From Candidatus Asbonarchaeum danakilense (GTDB lineage: Archaea; Nanohalarchaeota; Nanosalinia; Nanosalinales; Nanoanaerosalinaceae), in the NCBI GenBank assembly GCA_034190465.1, contig JAXINV010000008.1, positions 1 to 29,250 of the forward strand: a DNA stretch of 29,250 nt, given 5' to 3'. Positions 1-29,250 of the stretch are shown in pieces. The notes under the pieces are model-generated. The model worked only from the letters and a program-made list of their open reading frames with translations. It was not told where the DNA came from and did no database searches. Position 1 is the first letter of the stretch. Every line of letters begins with the position of its first letter. Made by a program: the position numbers and the translations under genes.

Positions 1-209
1 CGCTTCTTCAGGATCTCCACCATCATCTCGTCGGGCACGTACTCGCCCTCGTCGATGTACTCCCGGGGCGTGCCGTGCTCCGTTTCCACATCCTTGTTGT
101 TGCGGAGGATCTGCCCGGTGGAGACGTGCGGTATTCCGAACCGTTTCGAGATCTTTGATGCCTGGGTGCCCTTTCCCGCCCCAGGCGGACCGAGAATAAT
201 CAGGTTCAT
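1..209 (-). CDS. adk: Adenylate kinase, bacterial/monomeric type (5' part; runs off the window)
   Basis: Manual translation: MNLIILGPPGAGKGTQASKISKRFGIPHVSTGQILR...YIDEGEYVPDEMMVEILKK. Has the GPPGAGKGT P-loop and STG/VPD motifs. An alternative start at 215 is possible. Confidence 0.93.
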   Translation of the reverse strand, partial: MNLIILGPPGAGKGTQASKISKRFGIPHVSTGQILRNNKDVETEHGTPREYIDEGEYVPDEMMVEILKK

Positions 210-284
210 TTGCATCGGTGGGTGCAACCCCTGTTCGGGCCAGTCGGCCCTTCCGTGACACGCATCCAACCACAGCGAAGCAAC

Positions 285-11482: not shown

Positions 11483-12496
11483 CTACCGGACGACCTCTTT
11501 GAGATGGTCCCTGATGGCGCCGAGTTCATCCCTGATCAGCAGGCCTCCCACGATCGTCGGCAGCCAGAAGGAGAACACGCGGTAGATCAGCGCGACCGCG
11601 ATCGCCGTCTCGATCGGGATCCCGACACCGCGGAACGACGCCACCATCGTCGTCTCGAACGCCCCGACCCCGCCGGGAAGCATACTGGCCGCACCGATCC
11701 AGCTCGCGGAGATGAACCCGACGATCACCGTGCCAAGCGCGGCTGCCTGTCCCAGCGCTATGAACACCATGTAGACCGCCAGCGACAGGAAGAAGTAGCC
11801 GACGACGTTCATCGCTGCCGGGAACACCAGCTTCCGCTTGTTGCGCCGGGCGTACACGACCTGTTCCGCGATCGCATCCGCCGCCCTGCGGAGATGCGGG
11901 TGCGCCGGCCCGGTGAACCGTGCGACAACCGCCTCCAGCCGATCGAGGAGCTGACGGAGTCGCCGTCGCTCCAGGGCGATGTAGCCCGTGTAGCTGATGC
12001 CGACCACCACGGTCAATGTCAGGATGCCCTGCACCGCCATGCCGAGCAGATCGACCTCGTTCATCGCGACGTACAGGACGAAACCGCACAGCAGCAGGAA
12101 CAGGAACGAGACAGCGTTCGCGATGTTCTTCAGCACGATGACACGCCGGGAGATCTGCTTCTCGACACCGTTGCTTCGGAAGAAACGGTCGTAGACCGCG
12201 AACCCACCGAGCCCCAGGCTCGGGACCGTGTTGACCATGAACGCCGCCTTCAGGTCGGTGGCGACCAGCCGGCGCAGGCCAAATGTGGTTCCGAAACCTG
12301 CAGCCAGTGACCGGTAGACGAGCGCGTTCACGACCGTGGCAGCTCCGACGCAGCCCAGAGCAAGGAGGATGTACAGCAGATCGGCATGCGAGAGGAGGCT
12401 GATAACCGTCACTGTCGGAACGAAGTAGTCAACAGCCGCCGCAACGATGGCGATCGTCACCGTCAACAGGAAAAGGTGTTTAAGCCGTTGGAGCAT
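11483..12496 (-). CDS. Lysylphosphatidylglycerol-synthase-TM / UPF0104 flippase-like membrane protein
   Basis: Multi-TM protein with LPGGVGAFE and ALIYRVFSFWLP motifs typical of the family. Confidence 0.88.
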   Translation of the reverse strand: MLQRLKHLFLLTVTIAIVAAAVDYFVPTVTVISLLSHADLLYILLALGCVGAATVVNALVYRSLAAGFGTTFGLRRLVATDLKAAFMVNTVPSLGLGGFAVYDRFFRSNGVEKQISRRVIVLKNIANAVSFLFLLLCGFVLYVAMNEVDLLGMAVQGILTLTVVVGISYTGYIALERRRLRQLLDRLEAVVARFTGPAHPHLRRAADAIAEQVVYARRNKRKLVFPAAMNVVGYFFLSLAVYMVFIALGQAAALGTVIVGFISASWIGAASMLPGGVGAFETTMVASFRGVGIPIETAIAVALIYRVFSFWLPTIVGGLLIRDELGAIRDHLKEVVR

Positions 12497-13680: not shown

Positions 13681-14687
13681 CACTCAGCCACCGCGAACCT
13701 GATACCGTCGTGGGCCTGGTAGTTTTCCAGCTCGATGTCGTCGAACGCCAGGTCGTCCAGGTCCTTGTCAGCCACCCGGATCGACGGACGGTCCAGCGGC
13801 TCCCGGGACAACTGCTCCAGCAGCCCCGGCACGTGGTCATGGTCTTCCTCCCCGTCCGGCTCCGGCGGGGCAGCATCGTCCAGCCAGTCACGGAACCCGC
13901 GGTAGTCGTCGCGGGACTCGACCCCGCGGAGCCGGTCCTGAAGCTCGTCCAGCCGCGACCTGTAAAAGTCGGCGCGGTCGCCCTTGCCGCAGTATACGTG
14001 GGCGTCGACGATCGTGTGGGCGAACGTCCCCGGTTCCAGGTCGGCCTGCTGCGCGACGATGTGGGTGATGAGCGCGTAGGCCGCGATGTTGAACGGCACA
14101 CCCAGCGCCAGGTCGCCGGACCGCTGCGTCAGCTGGGTGTTCAGCCGTCCGTCCTGGACGTTGAACGTGAACGTGTAGTGGCACGGCGGCAGCTTCGAGA
14201 CCGCAGCGTTCGCCGGGTGCCAGGCATTGACGACGAGCCTCCGGGAATGCGGTCGTTCACGGAGCGTGTCGATGACGTACTGCAGCTGGTCGAACGTCCG
14301 GCCGTGCTCATCCTCCCGGGTCCAGCGGTGGCCGTCGTCCGGCCAGGCCTCACCGTCCAGTCCCTCGTCCGGCACCGGGTAGCGGCGCCAGAACCGGCCG
14401 TACGCCGTCTCCAGCCGGCCGTCCTCGTCGGCCCACGCGTCCCAGATGCTGGTCTCCTCCCGCAGGTTGCGGATGTGCTCCTCACCGGAGAAGTACCAGA
14501 GCAGCTCGTGGATCAGCGACCGCCACCGGTAGCCGTCCATGTCCTTCGTCGTCAGCAAGGGGAAGCCCTGCTGCAGGTCGACCCGATAGTGGTGGCTGAA
14601 CGACGAGATCGTCGCGACATCAGTCCGGTTCCGCTTAAAGCCGCCCCGCTGCAGGACGTCCGCCACCAGGTCATGGTACTGCTGCAC
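13680..14687 (-). CDS. thyA: Thymidylate synthase
   Basis: GFPLLTTK, ELLWY, LPPCH (catalytic Cys), QRSGDLALGVPFNIAAY and DAHVY. GTG start follows a GGAGGT SD. Confidence 0.96.
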   Translation of the reverse strand: MQQYHDLVADVLQRGGFKRNRTDVATISSFSHHYRVDLQQGFPLLTTKDMDGYRWRSLIHELLWYFSGEEHIRNLREETSIWDAWADEDGRLETAYGRFWRRYPVPDEGLDGEAWPDDGHRWTREDEHGRTFDQLQYVIDTLRERPHSRRLVVNAWHPANAAVSKLPPCHYTFTFNVQDGRLNTQLTQRSGDLALGVPFNIAAYALITHIVAQQADLEPGTFAHTIVDAHVYCGKGDRADFYRSRLDELQDRLRGVESRDDYRGFRDWLDDAAPPEPDGEEDHDHVPGLLEQLSREPLDRPSIRVADKDLDDLAFDDIELENYQAHDGIRFAVAE

Positions 14688-14689
14688 GG

Positions 14690-15937
14690 TCAGTACCTCC
14701 TGTCCGCGCCGTCGTAGACCGGGAAGTTTGCGCACAGCTCGTCGACCTCCTCACGCACATCCTGGGCCTCGCCGTCCAGCGCCCGGTCGATCAGGTCGGC
14801 GATCCGGCGGAACTCGTCCTCCTCCATGCCGCGCGTCGTCAGGGCGGGCGCGCCGATCCTGATGCCGGAGGTGACGCGCGGCGACCGGTCGTCGTACGGT
14901 ATCATGTTCTTGTTGACGACGATGCCCGCCTCCTCCAGCCGCTGCTCGGCTTCCTTCCCTGTCATGCCGCGGCTGGTCATGTCGGCGAGGACGAGGTGGT
15001 TGTCCGTGCCGCCGCTGACGAGACGGATCCCGTGCTGCTGCAGCCGATCCGCGAGCGCCGCCGCGTTTGTCCTGATCTGGCGCTGGTATGCGTCGAACCC
15101 GTCGTCCAGCGCCGCGCCGAAGCTGGCCGCCTTGGCCGCGACCTGGTGCATCAGCGGGCCGCCCTGCGTGTGCGGGAACACGGCGCTGTCCACGTCGTCG
15201 GCCAAGCCTTCCCGACACATGATCATGCCGCCGCGGGCACCGCGCAGGGTCTTGTGCGTGGTCGTGGTGACGATGTCGCACTGGGGAAACGGGGAGGCGT
15301 GCTCACCCGCCGCCACCAGGCCGGCGACGTGGGCGATGTCCGCCATCAGGTACGCGTCGGTCTCATCGGCAGCCTCCCGGAACGCGTCGAACGGTACCTC
15401 GCGCGGATAGGCGGAGAACCCGCAGACGATCAGGTCCGGGTCGGCCTCCCGTGCCGCGTCGAGGATGTCATCCGCCTCGAACCGCTCCGTCTCCTCGTTG
15501 ATTGCGTAGGTCCGGAAGTCGAACAGGTTGCCGGAGAAGTTGACCCCGTGTCCGTGGCTGAGATGGCCGCCGTGGCTCAGGACCGGGCCGAGGACCGTGG
15601 CACCCTGCCCCAGCAGGGCGAAGTACGCGGCGAAGTTGGCCTGGGAGCCGGAGTGCGGCTGGACGTTGACATGGTCGGCGCCGAACAGCTCCGCGGCCCG
15701 CTCACGTGCCAGGTCCTCGACCCGGTCGTGGTGCTGGCAGCCGGCGTAGTATCGCTCACCGGGGTAGCCCTCGGCGTACTTGTTGGTGAGGACGCTCCCC
15801 TGCGCCTCGAGCACGGCCTGGCCGACGAAGTTCTCCGAGGCGATCATCTCCAGGCCGCCCCGTTCCTGGCGCCGCCGCTCGTCCCGGAGCATGCTGTGGA
15901 GTTCGGGGTCCTGCTGTTCAAGTGGTGCATGTTGCAT
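14690..15937 (-). CDS. glyA: Serine hydroxymethyltransferase
   Basis: MIASENF, NKYAEGYPG, GGHLSHG, TTTTHKTLRG (PLP Lys) and GGTDNHL. ATG at 15937 follows a GAGGTGA SD. Confidence 0.97.
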   Translation of the reverse strand: MQHAPLEQQDPELHSMLRDERRRQERGGLEMIASENFVGQAVLEAQGSVLTNKYAEGYPGERYYAGCQHHDRVEDLARERAAELFGADHVNVQPHSGSQANFAAYFALLGQGATVLGPVLSHGGHLSHGHGVNFSGNLFDFRTYAINEETERFEADDILDAAREADPDLIVCGFSAYPREVPFDAFREAADETDAYLMADIAHVAGLVAAGEHASPFPQCDIVTTTTHKTLRGARGGMIMCREGLADDVDSAVFPHTQGGPLMHQVAAKAASFGAALDDGFDAYQRQIRTNAAALADRLQQHGIRLVSGGTDNHLVLADMTSRGMTGKEAEQRLEEAGIVVNKNMIPYDDRSPRVTSGIRIGAPALTTRGMEEDEFRRIADLIDRALDGEAQDVREEVDELCANFPVYDGADRRY

Positions 15938-16264
15938 CGGGGTCACCTCGCCTCCATCGCGTTGCCGTCGCCCTCTCGTTCACCGGGGTCGCGTGGCGGG
16001 AAGCGGGGAGCAGTGCCCTGGCCGAGAACAGGGTGTCGTGGCGTGTTTGCGTGGCGGTCGGTCGTCCATTTATTGTACGGTCGTTGCCTCAGTTCGGACC
16101 ACCCAGCGGTCTGTACTTCATTAGTGTCTTACCGCTGAAGGATGTTTCACGACAGAAGTTGTCGACCCTGTCTGCAACCGGTCGGAGCGGTGCCACAACA
16201 CATAAATACCTCGTCGCCGATGCACCGGGATAGAAGGACGAGCCGATTCCAACACATACAAAAT

Positions 16265-16471: not shown

Positions 16472-16978
16472 TCATGTGGCCGCCACCTGCTCCGCGTTCA
16501 TGACCAGCGCGTACGCCAGGAGGGGGGCCGCACCTGTCAGCAGCTCGATCTCATGGGTCGCGATGAAGCCCTGGACATAGCCGCTGACCGCGAACGCAGC
16601 CGGGAACACACCCACGAACAGCGACGCCAGGGCAGGGAGCAACGGGGAGCAGCACAGCAACGGCGGCAGCACACTGCCCAGCACACCGCCCGACGTCGAC
16701 GCCCTGCACACCTCTTTATCGTGGCGGACCGCATACACCAGGAACGGGACGATGAACGCCATCAGGACCGCAAACAGCACAGCGAACCCCGCCAGCACCG
16801 GTGTCAGGAACCGGAGCGCCACCGGCCCGACACGTCCCCCGGTGAACGTCGCCGGGAGCGTGAACACGTAGAGCAGCAGGAACCCGAGGAACGTCACACC
16901 GCCGAGCACACCGTACCTCGGCTCAGCGAACACCGTGCGCGACGCCGTCCAGACCGTCTCCAGCCGGCGCCGGATCAT
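16472..16978 (-). CDS. Membrane protein with a vicinal Cys-Cys motif (possible metal transporter or thiol-redox partner)
   Basis: About 4 hydrophobic segments with LPPLLCCSPLLP; overlaps the upstream redoxin stop. Confidence 0.75.
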   Translation of the reverse strand: MIRRRLETVWTASRTVFAEPRYGVLGGVTFLGFLLLYVFTLPATFTGGRVGPVALRFLTPVLAGFAVLFAVLMAFIVPFLVYAVRHDKEVCRASTSGGVLGSVLPPLLCCSPLLPALASLFVGVFPAAFAVSGYVQGFIATHEIELLTGAAPLLAYALVMNAEQVAAT

Positions 16979-17598
16979 CCCTCCGTCCCCGACGCGAACC
17001 GCATGATCTTCTCCAGCGTCACGGCCGGCGCGCCACCTTTCCCGGTTATTTCGCCGTTTGGCTCGATGATGTAGTAGACATCAGGCCTGTTCTGCGGGTT
17101 CCAGATACGGGTGGATCCATGGGAGAGCGTGCCCCACACCCAGTTCGAGGCATTACGGAGCTCCGGTGCGTACTGGTCGACGAACGACGGCACAGACGGC
17201 CCGGCATAGCCAGCGTTCCCCGCCGACTTGACCGCGATAACCGTCACGTTCCGCAGCCTGTCATTGTTCCGCTGCAGCGCCGCCGCGCCCTGCTGGCAGC
17301 TCGGGCACCACGTCGTGAAGACCCACAGCACCACCTTCCCGCTGTAATCCGACAGCTGCTTCGTCTCGCCCTGCACCGTCGTGAACGTGGCCTCCGGCGC
17401 CTGCGACCCGACCACCGCGGTCGGTGTTCCTTCCGTTCCCGGAGCGGACGGACCCTGGAACACCCCGACGACAAGCCACAGTCCAAGCAGAAGCAGCACA
17501 GCGATGGCAGCGTCCGTCCAGCCCAGATCCTCGACAGGAGAGTGGTCCTCCCGCAGCGCCTGCAAGCGATCACGCAGCCCGGTCTCGTCCTCACTCAT
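16975..17598 (-). CDS. Membrane-anchored TlpA/redoxin-family thioredoxin-fold protein
   Basis: TM anchor, then VGSQAPEATF...LSDYSGKVVLWVFTTWCPSC...P-x-YYIIEPNGEI. Confidence 0.88.
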   Translation of the reverse strand: MSEDETGLRDRLQALREDHSPVEDLGWTDAAIAVLLLLGLWLVVGVFQGPSAPGTEGTPTAVVGSQAPEATFTTVQGETKQLSDYSGKVVLWVFTTWCPSCQQGAAALQRNNDRLRNVTVIAVKSAGNAGYAGPSVPSFVDQYAPELRNASNWVWGTLSHGSTRIWNPQNRPDVYYIIEPNGEITGKGGAPAVTLEKIMRFASGTEG

Positions 17599-17761
17599 CG
17601 TCGCTCCGCTCCAGCGACCGTCGTGTTATCTCCGAGCTGCAGCTTCCATGCGTATCACAGTACTCCTCGCAGGCCGCAGCATCGTTCTCGGTTTCGTAGT
17701 GGAATCCACAGACATCACATCTGTAGGCCTCGCGTCCATCAAACATCTCCTCGGTCACCAT
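17591..17761 (-). CDS. Small Cys-rich metal-binding protein (56 aa)
   Basis: YRCDVCGFHY...ACEEYCDTHGSC; sits exactly between the ArsR stop and the redoxin start. Confidence 0.85.
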   Translation of the reverse strand: MVTEEMFDGREAYRCDVCGFHYETENDAAACEEYCDTHGSCSSEITRRSLERSDDE

Positions 17762-17762
17762 C

Positions 17763-18077
17763 TCAGCTCTCCTCCAAGACGTCACAGGTAAGGATGCCGT
17801 TGCGGTGCCTGTCGATGTGGTCCTCGATCGCAGCGAACAGATCATCCACCACAGCATCGTTCAGCGCATAGATCCGCTCATTTCCCTGGACCTCCCGTTC
17901 CGCGAACCCGCAGTTCGTGAGGCAGGACAGGTGGTACGACACCGTGTTCTGCGCCAGCCCGGTCGCCGCAGCGATCTCGTTCACCGACCGCTCGCCGTCC
18001 CGCAGCGCCTCGACGACCTGCATCCGTGTCTCATCGGCCAGTGCCTGGAACAGCCTCGCGTACACCCTGGCATCCAT
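17763..18077 (-). CDS. ArsR/SmtB regulator with CmtR-like Cys ligands
   Basis: FQALADETRMQV...SVNEIA...VSYHLSCLTNCGF plus a C-terminal Cys (alpha4C-type site). Confidence 0.9.
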   Translation of the reverse strand: MDARVYARLFQALADETRMQVVEALRDGERSVNEIAAATGLAQNTVSYHLSCLTNCGFAEREVQGNERIYALNDAVVDDLFAAIEDHIDRHRNGILTCDVLEES

Positions 18078-18094
18078 ATCAACGATGTTTGATA
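18077..18094. promoter_or_regulatory. Inverted-repeat operator for the ArsR operon
   Basis: TATCAA-N6-TTGATA between a TATA-like element (~18102-18109) and the start codon. Confidence 0.7.
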
Positions 18095-18161
18095 CAGGGC
18101 GGTATAAAGATCGGGGTCTCATCCGGTCGCCCTCAAAGAAAAATGAGGGACCGTCCAGGCC

Positions 18162-18590
18162 TCAGGAGACCTGGACAGTACTGTGCATACCGCTTCCAGG
18201 GCTGCCGTGGAAGCTGCAGTACACCTGGTAGGTGCCCGCCTCGTTGAACCGGAGCATCACACTCTGACCGCTCGACAGCGTCACATCGATGCCTGCAGAA
18301 TCGAGCGTGACCGTATGGGTCCCCTGCTGGCTCACGAACTTCACCACAGTCCCCGCACTGATCTGCGGGCTCGTGGCGGAGAACTTATAGTTGGTCAGTG
18401 TGATCGTCCGGTCGGGCGAGACACCTGAAACCTTCTCGATCGCCGGCGCCCCAGTGTTGCCACCCCCATCCGTCGGCTGCTGGTTGCCAGCACCCGTATT
18501 GCCGTACGGCTGGCTGGAACCACTGAGACAGCCCGCCAGCACCGTCAGCGAGACAAGGGCAGCAAGTGTGAGGAGGTTGTGTCGATCCAT
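18162..18590 (-). CDS. Cupredoxin (plastocyanin/halocyanin-like) lipoprotein
   Basis: LAGC lipobox; type-1 copper ligands H(TV)...YCSFH...GM. Confidence 0.88.
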   Translation of the reverse strand: MDRHNLLTLAALVSLTVLAGCLSGSSQPYGNTGAGNQQPTDGGGNTGAPAIEKVSGVSPDRTITLTNYKFSATSPQISAGTVVKFVSQQGTHTVTLDSAGIDVTLSSGQSVMLRFNEAGTYQVYCSFHGSPGSGMHSTVQVS

Positions 18591-18600
18591 CGATTCAGGG

Positions 18601-18620
18601 TAATGTAACAGAATTGTAAC
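18601..18620. promoter_or_regulatory. Shared operator motif, copy 1
   Basis: TAATGTAAC-AGA-ATTGTAA between the TATA (18621-18628) and the cupredoxin start. Confidence 0.65.
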
Positions 18621-18669
18621 TTAAATAAGTTGGCCAGCGCCACCCCCGCGACCAGTACCGGCTGCCACG

Positions 18670-19803
18670 TCACCGCAGCGTCAGCCGGCCCCGCATACCG
18701 TTCTCAGAGTGGCCCGGCAAACTGCACACGAACCGGATCGGGAAGGTGCCTGACCGTGGCGCCGTGAACGTGAAGGAATCCGAGCCTCCGGCACGGATGG
18801 TACTGGAGCCGACCCCGAGGGCAGGGATCCTGAGATTGTGCGGGATCGATCCCGTGTTCGTGAACGTGACCTTCACCGTCTGTCCCTTTTCCACGGTTAT
18901 CGTCGACGGAGAGAAACTGTACTCCGTCCCGGAGACCGTGATCCTCCGGTCCACGCTGGCACCACCCGCCCCCGTTGTCTCGGTCCCGCCATCCAGCTTC
19001 CGCTCGATGATTGTCCGGAACCGTGAGTACGGCTGCGCCCCCACGATCTTCGTCCCGGTCTCACTGCCCGACCGATAGATGACAAAGCCCGGTGTCGCCG
19101 AGACACCGACCGTCCGCGCCTGGCTTTCATCCTCAGACAGCTCCTGTCGGATCTGCTGGCGGTTCTCCTCCATGCACGAGCGCACCCGACTGGCATCGAT
19201 CCCGGTCAGGTTCCGTGTCATCGCGAGGATATCCTGCCTGTCCCCCCAGCCACGGTTCTCACCGTCCTGCCTGTCATACATCTGTGCGTGCCAGTCCCAG
19301 TACGCCTCGGGATTGGTCTGACCGACCTGTCGCCAGACACACTGGGAGGCGATAGCTGCCGTCGTCGAATCCGGACCGAGGAACGCGAAGTCCTTGAACA
19401 CAAACCTGACCTTGCCGGTCTTGATATAGTCCTCCCGCAGCCGGGGGAACGTCTGCTGTTCGAACCGCTTGCAGAACGGGCACTGGAAATCACCCCAGTA
19501 CACTATCGTAACCGGCGCATCCGGGCTTCCGATCGTCGGATCATCATCGAAGGAGATACTGCTGACAGTGACCGCGCTGTCCTGTCGCTGGTTCCCCTGT
19601 GTCGGCTGTGTATCCGTGTCCGTCGGCTCCGTGTCTGTCGGCGCAGCAGAGACGGCTCCGCTCGATCCTCCCGTCGTGAGGAGCGTCACAGCCATCCCCG
19701 TACCGCCGACCATGAAGCCGACAACGAAAACCAGGATGAACGCATGTTTCGCCCTGAAAACGATCGTCGTACCGCCACCCTCTCCATCCACTGCATCAGC
19801 CAT
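18670..19803 (-). CDS. DsbA-family oxidoreductase fused to a C-terminal cupredoxin domain
   Basis: TM anchor; GSPDAPVTIVYWGDFQCPFC...GVSATPGF...GAQPY; then PHN...FVCSLPGHSENGM. Confidence 0.9.
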   Translation of the reverse strand: MADAVDGEGGGTTIVFRAKHAFILVFVVGFMVGGTGMAVTLLTTGGSSGAVSAAPTDTEPTDTDTQPTQGNQRQDSAVTVSSISFDDDPTIGSPDAPVTIVYWGDFQCPFCKRFEQQTFPRLREDYIKTGKVRFVFKDFAFLGPDSTTAAIASQCVWRQVGQTNPEAYWDWHAQMYDRQDGENRGWGDRQDILAMTRNLTGIDASRVRSCMEENRQQIRQELSEDESQARTVGVSATPGFVIYRSGSETGTKIVGAQPYSRFRTIIERKLDGGTETTGAGGASVDRRITVSGTEYSFSPSTITVEKGQTVKVTFTNTGSIPHNLRIPALGVGSSTIRAGGSDSFTFTAPRSGTFPIRFVCSLPGHSENGMRGRLTLR

Positions 19804-20227
19804 TGCTCACACCTCGTCGACGGGCAGCCTGCAACGTGACACCGGCACCGAGGAACAGCAACCCGATATCGCGGATGATGATATCGGCAAAGCTACCGAC
19901 ACCGGCCAGGATCATGTTGACAAGGATCGCTGCAAGGGCAAGCGTCGTCAGTCCAGCAACCACGGTCGTATACATATCGGCAAGCAACGCCAGACCGAAC
20001 AGCGCTTCACCAACTGCATTCACCTGCATCACCTGGACAGGGCTCAGGCCGACAGCGGACAGGATGCCGGCGATCTGCGGCGCCATATATCCCGCCCAGA
20101 CAGCCGGCGCCAGCATACCGTGGATACCAGCTCCTGCCATCACCAGGCCCAGCCCCATGCGGAACACCGTCTCGGACCTGTCACTGTACCGAGCGACGGT
20201 GGTCGCGACCCTTCGTTCAGGATCCAT
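19796..20227 (-). CDS. DoxX-like membrane protein
   Basis: 4 TM segments with RMGLGLV, GEALFGLALL and IIRDIGL; overlaps the DsbA start. Confidence 0.75.
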   Translation of the reverse strand: MDPERRVATTVARYSDRSETVFRMGLGLVMAGAGIHGMLAPAVWAGYMAPQIAGILSAVGLSPVQVMQVNAVGEALFGLALLADMYTTVVAGLTTLALAAILVNMILAGVGSFADIIIRDIGLLFLGAGVTLQAARRRGVSNG

Positions 20228-20259
20228 TGTTCTCTCCTTAAGACCGGACTCTTTTATAT

Positions 20260-20278
20260 GTTACATTACACTTACAAT
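20260..20278. promoter_or_regulatory. Shared operator motif, copy 2 (opposite orientation, half-sites swapped)
   Basis: Minus strand ATTGTAA-GTG-TAATGTAAC directly upstream of TATA-like ATATAAAAG. Confidence 0.6.
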
Positions 20279-20289
20279 AGTGGCAGCCC

Positions 20290-21360
20290 TCAGAACAGTG
20301 TCGGCCGATGCCGCCACCACGGGACATACCGGTACATCCAGAGGAAACGTTTCTCCACTCCGAATCGCTCCATCAGGTATGGCAAAACGCCGGTGAACGA
20401 AACACGTCGTCCCTGGTACAGCCCATGGCGGCCGCCGAAGGAGACCAGGTACGGCGCATCTGGCGGGCGGTACAGCTCCAGCTCCTCGTCATGGATCGCA
20501 TGGAGCACGTTCTGGGCGGCGACCTGTCCTTCGATCGTTGCATAGTAGGCACGGTTCGTCCGCTCTCCCTCCGTCAGCTCGATCGCATCGCCCGCTCCGA
20601 AGACCCGGTCATGGTCCGGCGAGGACAGCCTCCGATCCACAGTGAGCGGGCCATCGAAACACGTCCGCACGGGCTCCGCCGGCCGGACCCCTGTCATCTC
20701 CAGAACCAGGCCGAACTCCGCTGCATCTCCCTCCTCCGTGACGACCGTCCCCGCGTCAACGTCCTCCACCCTTGTCTCCGTCCGCACGTCGATCCCCCGC
20801 CCCCGGAGTTCCTGTTCGACACGCTCCGCATTGTCTGCACGCAACTGCGGTGTGATCCGCTCCCCAGCCTCGAAGACCGTGACATCCACATCCTCCATGT
20901 ACTCGAGCTTGAACGCGGTCTCGATACCCTTGATACCTCCACCGACCACCCCGACACGCTCCACGGACGTGGCCCTGTCATGTATCCGTTGTGCATCCTG
21001 CCAGGTCTCGAACCGCAGCACCGTCTCGTCGTCAGGGAGCACGCGGGGTGTTTCGCCGCCGAGCGCCACGATCAGGTAGTCGTAGCCGACCTGCTGCGAC
21101 TCCGTTTCGACAGTGCGTGCCTCCGGTCTGATATCTTGCACCCGCTCCTGTATCCAGGCAGTCTCCTTCCCTAGCTGCGGTCCGAGCCGGAACCCTGTGC
21201 TGTCCGGGGACGCGCCCTCCAGGACATGGTACAGCGCAGGCTTGAACTGGAAGTAATCGGATGGCTCGACCACCGTGACCTCCACCGGCGCCCGCTCCAG
21301 CTGCTTGATCGCCGGATAGCCGGCGACCCCTGCACCGAGGACGACCACACGCGGCAACAT
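20290..21360 (-). CDS. NAD(P)/FAD-dependent oxidoreductase, NDH-2-like
   Basis: VVVLGAGVAG, YDYLIVALG, second dinucleotide motif VVGGGIKGIE and VFGAGD. Confidence 0.9.
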   Translation of the reverse strand: MLPRVVVLGAGVAGYPAIKQLERAPVEVTVVEPSDYFQFKPALYHVLEGASPDSTGFRLGPQLGKETAWIQERVQDIRPEARTVETESQQVGYDYLIVALGGETPRVLPDDETVLRFETWQDAQRIHDRATSVERVGVVGGGIKGIETAFKLEYMEDVDVTVFEAGERITPQLRADNAERVEQELRGRGIDVRTETRVEDVDAGTVVTEEGDAAEFGLVLEMTGVRPAEPVRTCFDGPLTVDRRLSSPDHDRVFGAGDAIELTEGERTNRAYYATIEGQVAAQNVLHAIHDEELELYRPPDAPYLVSFGGRHGLYQGRRVSFTGVLPYLMERFGVEKRFLWMYRYVPWWRHRPTLF

Positions 21361-26762: not shown

Positions 26763-26938
26763 AGAAACTCACCTCCATTGTATCAATTACCGCCGCCCGC
26801 CTTAAAGGCCACGGCCCGCCCCGGATCCTTAAAATAATTTCCGGCCGCTCCGATAAACAGTACACAAATTTTAAAAGAACAGGGTGGAAACTTGAAGCGC
26901 ATGAACCTTCAGCCAGCACCCGGTAGAGGTACGGTACC

Positions 26939-28216
26939 ATGCCGCAGATGACCGACCAGCCAAACAGCGACTGGCGGCACATACCCGTCACCATCCCGGA
27001 CAAGCCAGCAGCGCGGCAGCCCAGCTACGCCAAGATGCGGTGCCGCTGGTCGACCGGCCAGACACGACAGGCAGACCTGCAGCGGGCACAGGCCGACATC
27101 GAGCAGCACATGCAGCAGGCGGACATCGACACCACCCCTGCCTTCGACCTGCAGGGCGACTGGCCCGACCACCCGCTGATGGACTCCGTCAGACAGCGGG
27201 TCAGGGAGCGTGTCACACAGCGGATCGCGGAACGTAACCTGCTCGTCGACGAGAAGGACGCACTGTTCCAGGTCCTGTTCCGCCTCACCGCACTGCCACC
27301 GCGACGGCTGTTTCAGGACGGCGACGCGGCACGGCAGCTGCTGGACGGTGTCAGCACCGACCAGTGGCGCGGCATCCTCGACCTCGACAGGGACGACTTC
27401 CACGCCCTGGCGCTGGACGAGGCCGTCATCGACCGTGTCATCGACGAGCAGCTCGCCGTCATCCAGGACAGACTCGCCGCCAGCCCGCTGCCCCTGGAGC
27501 GAATCCTCGAGAAGACCGGGATCTGCAGCGGAGACTGGGTGCTGAAGCGGACCGGTGGCGAGGTCGTCGCCGAGGACAGGCGGACCGGCGACCAGCGCGG
27601 CATCGAGCTGCGCGAAGTCGACCAGCAGACCGCCACACAGTTCCACCAGGACCTGCACTACATCCACACCCCGCGGACCGGGACCGCGTACGGGCTCTAC
27701 GCCGAGGGCGCCGAGCTGCCGTTCTCCGTCGAGTCCGTCGAGCCCGTCGACCGGGACTACAAGCAGGCAGCCCTGCTGCTCCACGGCCACGACCCCGACA
27801 ACTGCGTCGAGCTGACACGGCTGTACAACTGGCCGTCACCGCCGATGAACACCGTCAGCATCATGGACAGGCTCGTCTTCGACCGGTTCCGCGACGAAGG
27901 GATCGAAGCCGTCAGCACCACCATCATGCCGACCTACACCCTCAGCAAGAGCCAGACGGCCGGCGGCATCGACCAGGCATACCTCGCCAAGCGGCCGGAA
28001 CACACGTTCATCGGCAGGGACGTCGGCGGGCGGACAGCACTTGAGCACGCCACCAAACGCAAGCGGCAGCGGCGCGGCCAGCAGCCCGTGCGGCGGGACC
28101 ATCCCGACTTCCCGCTGCTGCCCGTCGTCGAGCTGATCAACGGCCTCAGCGCGCCCAGCATCGAGCCGTCACACCGGGTCGACGGAAGCATGATAACCAT
28201 GGGGTACGGAGGCTGA
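26939..28216 (+). CDS. Uncharacterised protein with a putative Mom-like GNAT-fold C-terminal domain
   Basis: LREVDQQTATQFHQDLHYIH...YGLY...VELTRLY...PMNTVS resembles the HY...G...ELxRL...PxNxxS pattern of Mom-like proteins. The ORF itself is well supported; the family call is tentative. Confidence 0.55.
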   Translation: MPQMTDQPNSDWRHIPVTIPDKPAARQPSYAKMRCRWSTGQTRQADLQRAQADIEQHMQQADIDTTPAFDLQGDWPDHPLMDSVRQRVRERVTQRIAERNLLVDEKDALFQVLFRLTALPPRRLFQDGDAARQLLDGVSTDQWRGILDLDRDDFHALALDEAVIDRVIDEQLAVIQDRLAASPLPLERILEKTGICSGDWVLKRTGGEVVAEDRRTGDQRGIELREVDQQTATQFHQDLHYIHTPRTGTAYGLYAEGAELPFSVESVEPVDRDYKQAALLLHGHDPDNCVELTRLYNWPSPPMNTVSIMDRLVFDRFRDEGIEAVSTTIMPTYTLSKSQTAGGIDQAYLAKRPEHTFIGRDVGGRTALEHATKRKRQRRGQQPVRRDHPDFPLLPVVELINGLSAPSIEPSHRVDGSMITMGYGG

Positions 28217-28220
28217 TACC

Positions 28221-28805
28221 ATGCAGACAGTCCTGTTCCTGACATCGAACGAGGAGAAGTTCACGTGGGCGAAGAAGAAACTGGAGCCCTACGACATCAA
28301 ACTGGAGCGGAACGACTTCGGCCTGCCAGAGATCCAGAGCGTCGACACCGAGCAGGTCGCACGGGAGAAGGCCGAGTACGCCACCCGGTTCATCCAGCAG
28401 CCGTTCTTCGTCGCCGACACCGGCTTCGAGATCGAGGCGCTGGACGGCTTCCCCGGCGCGTTCCTCAAGCCCGTCATGAACACCATCGGCGCCGAGGGAC
28501 TGTGCAAGCTGATGGAAGACGAGGACGACCGCAGCTGCAACTTCAAGAGCGTCCTCGCCTACGTCGACCAGGACGGCGACATCCACACCTTCACCTGCAA
28601 CGACACCGGCACAATGGCCGTCGAGCCGACCGGTGAGCAGCGTGACCAGTGGGGCGACATCATGCGGCTGCACCAGCCCGACGGCTTCGACAAGACCCTC
28701 GCCGAGATGACCGACGACGAGTTCAGCAGCTACGAGGACCGGATGGAATCCGAAGAACACTACGTCAAGTTCGCCGAATGGTTCGCAGGGAGGGATGACA
28801 CATGA
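28221..28805 (+). CDS. Ham1/ITPase-family NTP pyrophosphatase, divergent
   Basis: FLTSNEEK, LPEIQ, AREKA, VADTGFEIEALDGFPG and KTLAEM are present; FGxDP and SHR motifs are absent. Confidence 0.92.
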   Translation: MQTVLFLTSNEEKFTWAKKKLEPYDIKLERNDFGLPEIQSVDTEQVAREKAEYATRFIQQPFFVADTGFEIEALDGFPGAFLKPVMNTIGAEGLCKLMEDEDDRSCNFKSVLAYVDQDGDIHTFTCNDTGTMAVEPTGEQRDQWGDIMRLHQPDGFDKTLAEMTDDEFSSYEDRMESEEHYVKFAEWFAGRDDT

Positions 28806-29250
28806 GCATCGTCTTCGTCAGCGGCGTGCCCGGCACCGGCAAGAGCACCGTCTGCCAGGGCGCACTGGAGCAGGACTACGACCTCGACTACCTCAACGTC
28901 GGCCAGTACCTGGAAGAATACATCGAAGAACACGGCAGCGAAGAAGGGGTCGACGACGCGCTGGAGGACTACCTCAAAGGCCTGGAGGACGACGTCATCG
29001 TCGACACCCACGCCGTCGAGCGGACAGACTACGGACTCAAGCAGTACGCGTTCCAGGGCCTTTCGGACATGGACGTCGAGGGCTACGTCTTCGTCGACAG
29101 CGACCCGGAAGACATCTACCAGCGGCGGGAGAAGAGCGACAAGGAACGAATCGATGAGTCCCTCGACGAGATCGAACAGCACCGCGACCACCTGCAGCGC
29201 GTCATCACCTCGCGGGCCACGAGGGACGAGGCACCGACCTACGTCCTGGA
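28802..29250 (+). CDS. Archaeal AdkA-type nucleoside monophosphate kinase (3' end off window)
   Basis: Manual translation: MSIVFVSGVPGTGKSTV...VIVDTHA...VDSDPEDIYQRR...DEIEQH; ATGA overlap with the Ham1 stop. Confidence 0.85.
   Translation, partial: MSIVFVSGVPGTGKSTVCQGALEQDYDLDYLNVGQYLEEYIEEHGSEEGVDDALEDYLKGLEDDVIVDTHAVERTDYGLKQYAFQGLSDMDVEGYVFVDSDPEDIYQRREKSDKERIDESLDEIEQHRDHLQRVITSRATRDEAPTYVL

Follow-up and report, generated by a model that had tools for sequence, protein, structure and literature searches.

What do three adjacent genes at the right-hand end of an archaeal contig make? The stretch analysed here (the window) comprises 29,250 nucleotides of Candidatus Asbonarchaeum danakilense (GenBank assembly GCA_034190465.1, contig JAXINV010000008.1, positions 1 to 29,250 of the forward strand; C10:1-29250), taken from a 1.2 Mb genome that is split into 81 contigs and 92% complete. 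The original prediction, made from the letters alone, placed at its end a candidate nucleotide-modification system consisting of a Mom/GNAT-like protein, an altered Ham1 pyrophosphatase and an extra nucleoside monophosphate (NMP) kinase. Judging from the observed folds, conserved residues, co-occurrence, fusions and patchy distribution, this cassette is real, conserved and built from known folds, it is apparently undescribed, and the joint role of its three genes is probably the production and handling of a nucleotide with altered chemistry. The reading that we prefer, with a probability of about 0.5, is that gene 1 acylates a base amine of a free nucleotide while the kinase and Ham1 set the phosphorylation state of that nucleotide. 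The predicted arrangement, in which the three genes are co-oriented, the first two lie 4 bp apart and the last two overlap at ATGA, agrees with the coordinates of the open reading frames, all on the + strand:

26939..28216, + strand: gene 1, 425 amino acids; cytidylate-kinase (Cmk)-like remnant, helical domain and Mom-like GNAT domain
26939..27118, + strand: gene 1 residues 1-60, aligned to the end of the domain in homologues of about 600 residues; probable remnant of a Cmk-like domain lacking a P-loop
27161..27508, + strand: gene 1 residues 75-190, helical domain with D107, Q111 and Q171; no clear known fold
27542..28192, + strand: gene 1 residues 202-418, Mom-like GNAT domain with H240, Y241, R294, S307, H243 and R246
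28221..28805, + strand: gene 2, 194 amino acids; pyrophosphatase of the Ham1/ITPase fold
28802..29250, + strand: gene 3, 149 amino acids visible; AdkA-type NMP kinase that runs into an assembly gap

The identity of gene 1 had been proposed from the motifs LHYIH, GLY, ELTRLY and PMNTVS, all of which we located in the protein. When its predicted structure (pLDDT 84.7, with residues 1-28 below 50) was searched with Foldseek, Mu Mom (8bv8) ranked first (E 1e-5), and structural alignment to 8bv8 (VIA) gave a Z score of 11.0 with a root-mean-square deviation (rmsd) of 3.4 over 182 aligned residues, next to a Z of 8.5 for the runner-up. The fold is thus that of a Mom-type GNAT, with Mom as the best structural match, which bears out the original prediction on this point; Mom-like proteins were also the top matches in a viral structure library. 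In sequence space the relationship is fainter: PF25680 reached 13.6 bits (E 0.054) on the window protein and missed its gathering score of 27.1, it was found in 9 of 16 gene 1 homologues, and scores across the family ranged from weak to cut-off level. NCBIfam and PADLOC contained no match to gene 1, and the family profile had no real match among PDB sequences. The Mom link is founded on the predicted fold together with weak Pfam scores.

To compare residues we used the hhalign register between gene 1 and Mom, which is weak on its own (probability 3.7%, E 0.011) and ends at Mom S146, the equivalent of T327. In this register H240, Y241, R294 and S307 of gene 1 correspond to H58, Y59, R111 and S124 of Mom, and they occur in 142/142, 140/142, 140/142 and 133/143 aligned family rows, respectively. 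Extending the register without gaps places M330 and T332 at Mom D149 and R151, which are not kept; the family columns there hold 87 Met and 26 Asn, and 56 Ser, 26 Asn and 24 Thr (n=126), and in the family columns no Tyr equivalent to Mom Y159 lies near positions 339-340. Because these three positions differ, we classify gene 1 as Mom-like and not as an orthologue of Mom. In the portion of the Mom study available to us (PMC13219725), the essential residues include R111, S124 and R151, Gly-tRNA serves as donor and adenine in double-stranded DNA as acceptor, and D149 and R151 surround the flipped dA in a model. The gene 1 family also has near-invariant residues of its own, namely H243 and R246 in the GNAT domain and D107 (119/121 rows), Q111 (119/120) and Q171 (117/125) in the helical domain. 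For the latter domain, weak matches to sigma-factor-like structures (Z 6.3-6.8) were not accepted. The net charge of the GNAT domain has a median of +4 across 122 family proteins and is -5 in the window protein, compared with +15 in Mom.

A profile search for the family returned 382 representatives at E<=0.001, 150 of which were listed, and a domain scan covered 77 of the 97 proteins of at least 400 amino acids among 160 family proteins. Of these 77 long members, 17 carry a Cmk-like fusion (15 above the Pfam cut-off), three a fused Ham1 and two a fused AdkA-like kinase; one family member, which has two close relatives, ends in a CYTH fold (template modelling score 0.84). Most A5 matches were ordinary cytidylate kinases and were not counted. 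The N-terminus of a 605-residue homologue adopts the Cmk fold (the top 13 Foldseek matches; Z 12.9, rmsd 4.2, 181 aligned residues) and contains no Walker A motif or P-loop. Profile-profile comparison of this 600-residue class with the Cmk fusions gave a probability of 19% and a P of 0.0012 (0.69 for the reversed control), and the link was accepted only once the fold search agreed. In a quick tree of 65 cores, midpoint-rooted and with some long branches, the Cmk-fused group stands apart from a 38-row group (SH-aLRT 99) that contains the window protein and most of the Ham1/AdkA loci. We infer that a fused Cmk domain decayed, was succeeded by a separate AdkA-like gene and was nearly lost in the window protein. 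A further domain with Cys and His residues, papain- or transglutaminase-like by eye and with no clear Pfam match, lies beside or is fused to the Mom-like gene in several cases (L014:4078-5211, L025:3683-4798, P0124, P0143, P0148 and L105:7579-10320).

Gene 2 is a Ham1-fold protein (PF01725, E 1.2e-25), as predicted, and the suspicion that it is an altered one proved well founded. It retains N10, K13 and E38, which bind the triphosphate, and the catalytic D66, while EHY stands in place of SHR and a Trp-containing loop in place of FGYD; TIGR00042 scores 98.9 bits against a cut-off of 145.35. The same holds for the cassette Ham1s as a set (n=19: 16 from loci and three fused), with the catalytic Asp in 19/19, SHR in 0/19 and a Trp-containing loop instead of FGYD, whereas in the genomes of loci L002-L011 six of seven Ham1s outside the cassette keep SHR. 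According to the accessible text of PMC5075207, Arg178 of the SHR motif contacts inosine through bonds to O6 and N7, which leads us to expect another base for the cassette enzymes. The structural relatives of gene 2 include KomB. Two other Ham1 groups deserve mention: the second Ham1 of the source genome (C30:8158-8814; L039:1450-2097) has a FAWD loop, no SHR and a long tree branch, and P0164-P0176 form a separate group with GYDYDK and no SHR.

Gene 3 matches PRK04040 (E 1.2e-14; 54.3 bits, below the cut-off of 155, the gene being cut by the gap) and carries the P-loop GVPGTGKS, in agreement with its description as an AdkA-like P-loop kinase. Among solved structures, archaeal AdkA is nearest to the cassette kinases (E about 1e-26), and 21 of 22 of these kinases match the Walker A pattern. 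Since separate ADK-family genes are present elsewhere in the source genome, gene 3 is indeed an extra kinase. There are two such genes, with segments at window 1-273, C7:1840-2316 and C25:12649-12744; the one at the left edge of the window may continue on contig C25.

Do the three genes travel together? Co-occurrence was scored within 1.5 kb of gene 1 at 38 loci, 22 of them with full flanks, using Ham1 and kinase profiles that were built from 9 and 10 of the scored loci and so favour detection there; Pfam independently confirmed the partner calls for L002-L011. Both partners were present at 17 of the 38 loci, Ham1 at 21, the kinase at 22 and neither at 12, nine of which fall short of 1.5 kb on one side. 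With full flanks, 16 of 22 loci have both partners, as the proposed association of the three genes implies, and 19 of 22 have at least one. The 38 loci reduce to 29 clusters at 60% identity, and both partners occur in 13 of these. Gene order and orientation vary.

The wider neighbourhoods contain radical SAM genes (L002, L003, L020, L022), radical SAM together with HAD phosphatase genes (L023, L026, L027), PfkB (L006, L017), an APH-like kinase (L032) and an aminotransferase with a methyltransferase (L028). The window cassette contains no radical SAM gene; for those elsewhere the highest NF038283 score is 39.8 bits (cut-off 180), and their viperin (pVip) scores are weak. We left the neighbouring peptidase S51/S66 genes (L008, L029) out of the system, along with papain-like domains noticed by eye. 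No nuclease was recognised among the locus neighbours scanned, nor any Sir2 protein or deaminase among these or the genes flanking the cassette in the window. With no nuclease recognised there and no PADLOC match for genes 1 and 2, the DNA-modification and defence roles that the original prediction had entertained are unsupported so far. Two local features stand apart from this survey: a 335-residue radical SAM family lies directly upstream of the kinase at L002:3528-4535, L003:7010-8017, L020:3050-4057 and L022:2272-3279, and about nine similar small DNA-binding-like genes precede the kinase at L006:3-7310.

The cassette is patchily distributed and found mainly in small genomes of 0.7-1.5 Mb. 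Gene 1 was detected in 0 of 60 relatives, and the syntenic site of a same-genus genome holds only the frameshifted 3' half of a Ham1 gene, 93% identical (G001:C5:47992-48303; L051:7993-8318), with gene 1 and the kinase missing; this remnant is a decayed copy of the cassette. With seed genomes excluded, gene 1 occurred in 4 of 400 genomes of the phylum containing Saccharibacteria, in 4 of 300 of that containing Micrarchaeota (two intact, one fragment and one probable chance match) and in 0 of 300 of that containing Nanoarchaeota. The match in G593 (E 2e-4, five stops) was taken as chance. At L003 a four-gene unit sits between an 83-nt stub of the 5' end of ychF and ychF itself; short copies of the ychF ends (L003:6876-6958 and 12381-12401) flank the cassette and ychF there, consistent with insertion at ychF. 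Viral contigs and annotated phages yielded no relatives in short-pattern or one-query searches, which cannot establish that there are none.

The last base of the window abuts a 100-N scaffold gap (C10:29251-29350) that truncates gene 3, and the prediction had allowed for a unit continuing beyond it. The tail of the kinase does so; further genes most likely do not, because the next gene after the gap (C10:29351-30192; L001:4352-5192) lies on the opposite strand, convergent with the kinase, so the transcription unit most likely consists of three genes. The convergent gene shows HAD-like motifs by eye, has no Pfam match and is conserved in the same-genus genome, where it reaches 175 bases beyond the portion present here; the true gap must therefore exceed 100 bases and contain both gene ends. 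In a second study, a single unbroken contig covers 26861-29250 with 119 differences, and other contigs extend past position 29250. Gene 1 has 16 homologues at 33-45% identity and is coding: in a second strain, 17 of the 22 listed differences in the gene fall at third codon positions and 15 of 22 are synonymous, the listing covering 40 of 178 differences. The stretch is present in salt-lake sequencing runs, with no RNA run among those listed. This setting, together with acidic proteins and genes of archaeal type, suggests a small halophilic archaeon, probably a nanohaloarchaeon. A sigma-70 promoter scan, whose models do not cover archaeal promoters, found nothing, and two candidate signals upstream of gene 1 were seen by eye:

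26869..26876, + strand: AT-rich box, possible archaeal TATA element
26926..26930, + strand: possible ribosome-binding site, ending 8 nt short of the gene 1 start codon (ATG)

Elsewhere in the window, thymidylate synthase and serine hydroxymethyltransferase genes are adjacent (13683-15946), and genes for thioredoxin/DsbA, cupredoxin, ArsR and a disulphide oxidoreductase cluster at 16475-21360. Further along the contig of this very small genome, a NAD salvage cluster (C10:36075-41612; L001:11079-16613) contains NrtR-like Nudix regulator, NAD kinase-like and isochorismatase/nicotinamidase-like genes, as well as a 410-residue gene that by eye resembles nicotinate phosphoribosyltransferase.

How might such a cassette work? 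We propose a mobile accessory unit that would make and manage an N-acylated free nucleotide. The Mom-type site of gene 1 (H240, Y241, R294, S307) would acylate the exocyclic amine of a mononucleotide instead of duplex DNA, the acyl group most likely being an amino acid from a charged tRNA, as in Mom; tRNA-dependent transferases of the GNAT fold work in natural-product pathways, according to the available part of PMC12945691. The dedicated kinase would shift the nucleotide between mono- and diphosphate, supplying the substrate or activating the product, and Ham1 with its rebuilt pocket would cut the modified triphosphate to the monophosphate, sparing the cell's own DNA and RNA. Adenine seems the likelier base in the Ham1/AdkA clade; the Cmk-fused clade could point to cytidine. 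The likeliest use would be conflict, as an antiviral or host-directed antimetabolite following the logic of viperin with its kinase. In its boldest form, which we consider doubtful, the proposal is that ultra-small archaea and bacteria produce a weapon against viruses or hosts, namely a nucleoside triphosphate whose base carries an aminoacyl group derived from tRNA; the cassette would then be the GNAT equivalent of viperin, its NMP kinase partner having been replaced several times in evolution and its re-tuned Ham1 providing self-protection.

Acylation of a free nucleotide fits best because the family is recurrently paired with enzymes acting on mononucleotide phosphates, its acceptor-side residues are changed and the Ham1 pocket is rebuilt. 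The NMP kinase partner recurs as a Cmk fusion, as a Cmk fold lacking the P-loop and as a separate or fused AdkA-like protein, and the Ham1, CYTH, HAD phosphatase, PfkB and APH-like partners also adjust phosphorylation state; Mom D149 and R151 are lost, and the GNAT domain is less basic than that of Mom. Several observations pull the other way. The donor, the acceptor and the base are all inferred, and the kinase and the pyrophosphatase would need different substrates to avoid a futile cycle. Neither partner is present at 3 of the 22 full-flank loci (one of them a fragment), SHR-less Ham1s occur outside the cassette too, the second Ham1 of the source genome included, and the PADLOC result for genes 1 and 2 is matched by the lack of a defence-island context. 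As for charge, 15 of the 122 family GNAT domains carry at least +10, and the low value of the window protein may reflect halophily alone. Finally, the structural match spans Mom residues 21-237, which include the DNA-binding insertion region. This last point, together with Mom being the best fold match, the four nearly invariant active-site residues and the Mom-like domains, many of them nuclease-fused, that are the nearest viral folds, would also suit a polymer substrate: gene 1 could aminoacylate DNA adenine, or a base in RNA or tRNA, after synthesis, while a changed-pocket Ham1 and a kinase working in reverse clean up, bringing modified nucleotides from turnover to the monophosphate and thereby preventing their re-incorporation. 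The altered Ham1 pocket would fit such a role. We regard this reading as possible, although we would not bet on it: the Mom-essential R151 is not kept, nor are D149 and Y159, the neighbours scanned include no recognised nuclease partner, no viral copies were found in the searches run, and there is no obvious reason why a polymer-modifying enzyme should have been fused repeatedly to an apparently intact cytidylate kinase.

GNATs and Ham1 proteins are frequently used for resistance and house-cleaning, and the occurrence of a dispensable cassette (decayed in the same-genus genome and seen in 0/60 relatives) mainly in small genomes raises the prospect of detoxification or salvage. The symbionts would take up nucleotides of host or viral origin, the GNAT would mask a harmful base analogue among them, and its two partner enzymes would either recycle or remove that analogue. 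This is unlikely in our judgement: the radical SAM, aminotransferase and methyltransferase genes at some loci look biosynthetic, and the GNAT is of the Mom type, not the small-molecule resistance type (Z 11.0 vs 8.5). Less probable still is signalling in the manner of Kongming, with the modified nucleotide as second messenger, Ham1 as a dead sensor and gene 1 as a toxic effector. Kongming likewise combines a base-modifying enzyme, kinase activity and a HAM1 protein (bioRxiv 2024.12.20.629578, as far as its accessible text goes), KomB is structurally related to gene 2, and Ham1-gene 1 fusions exist; in the same text, however, the defensive HAM1 sensor has His in place of the catalytic Asp that all 19 cassette Ham1s retain, and neither Sir2 nor a deaminase was recognised among the neighbours scanned.

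The preferred reading, acylation of a free nucleotide, has consequences beyond this locus. To our knowledge, no enzyme of this kind has been characterised apart from Mom, whose substrate is phage DNA. That cells have a sister family associated with nucleotide kinases and pyrophosphatases points towards a still undescribed modified nucleotide, and also towards Ham1 and AdkA variants whose base specificity is new. We know of few defence or host-manipulation tools in DPANN archaea and Patescibacteria, and three directly expressible genes offer a test of their use of nucleotide chemistry. Our literature search, with Iyer et al. 2013 (NAR 41:7635) and the supplements of the Mom and Kongming papers outside its coverage, found no description of the cassette.

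Set beside known systems, the gene 1 family shares with Mu Mom (PF25680, 8bv8; PMC13219725) the GNAT fold and the equivalents of H58, Y59, R111 and S124; unlike Mom, it is without D149, R151 and Y159, adds helical and Cmk-like domains, is less basic, and is cellular, not viral, in the searches run. It is accompanied by a kinase and a pyrophosphatase instead of nucleases, whereas the Mom domains of jumbo phages are fused to nucleases in the accessible portion of PMC7824862, and that of PMC7261163 shows no kinase link. Viperin provides a second parallel: in the part of bioRxiv 2023.09.13.557418 available to us, a nucleotide-modifying enzyme is linked to NMP kinases of diverse ancestry (CMPK2/VakA) or fused with them, with an occasional triphosphatase/cyclase domain and a patchy distribution; the cassette differs in being centred on a GNAT instead of a radical SAM protein and in its added Ham1. 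Like Kongming (KomABC), it consists of three genes and includes both an enzyme that modifies a base and a protein of the HAM1 fold, but its Ham1 keeps the catalytic Asp, it includes no Sir2 effector or deaminase, and the kinase of Kongming is cell-encoded. Genes 2 and 3 have the folds and catalytic residues of the housekeeping ITPase (RdgB/Ham1/MJ0226) and archaeal AdkA, except that SHR and FGYD are replaced and that the genome has a second Ham1 and separate ADK-family kinases. The pre-replicative base-modification pathways of phages employ a modifying enzyme, a dedicated deoxynucleoside monophosphate kinase and a deoxynucleoside triphosphatase; the cassette, cellular, based on GNAT chemistry and with no polymerase or phage genes nearby, follows the same three-role logic at the level of the mononucleotide.

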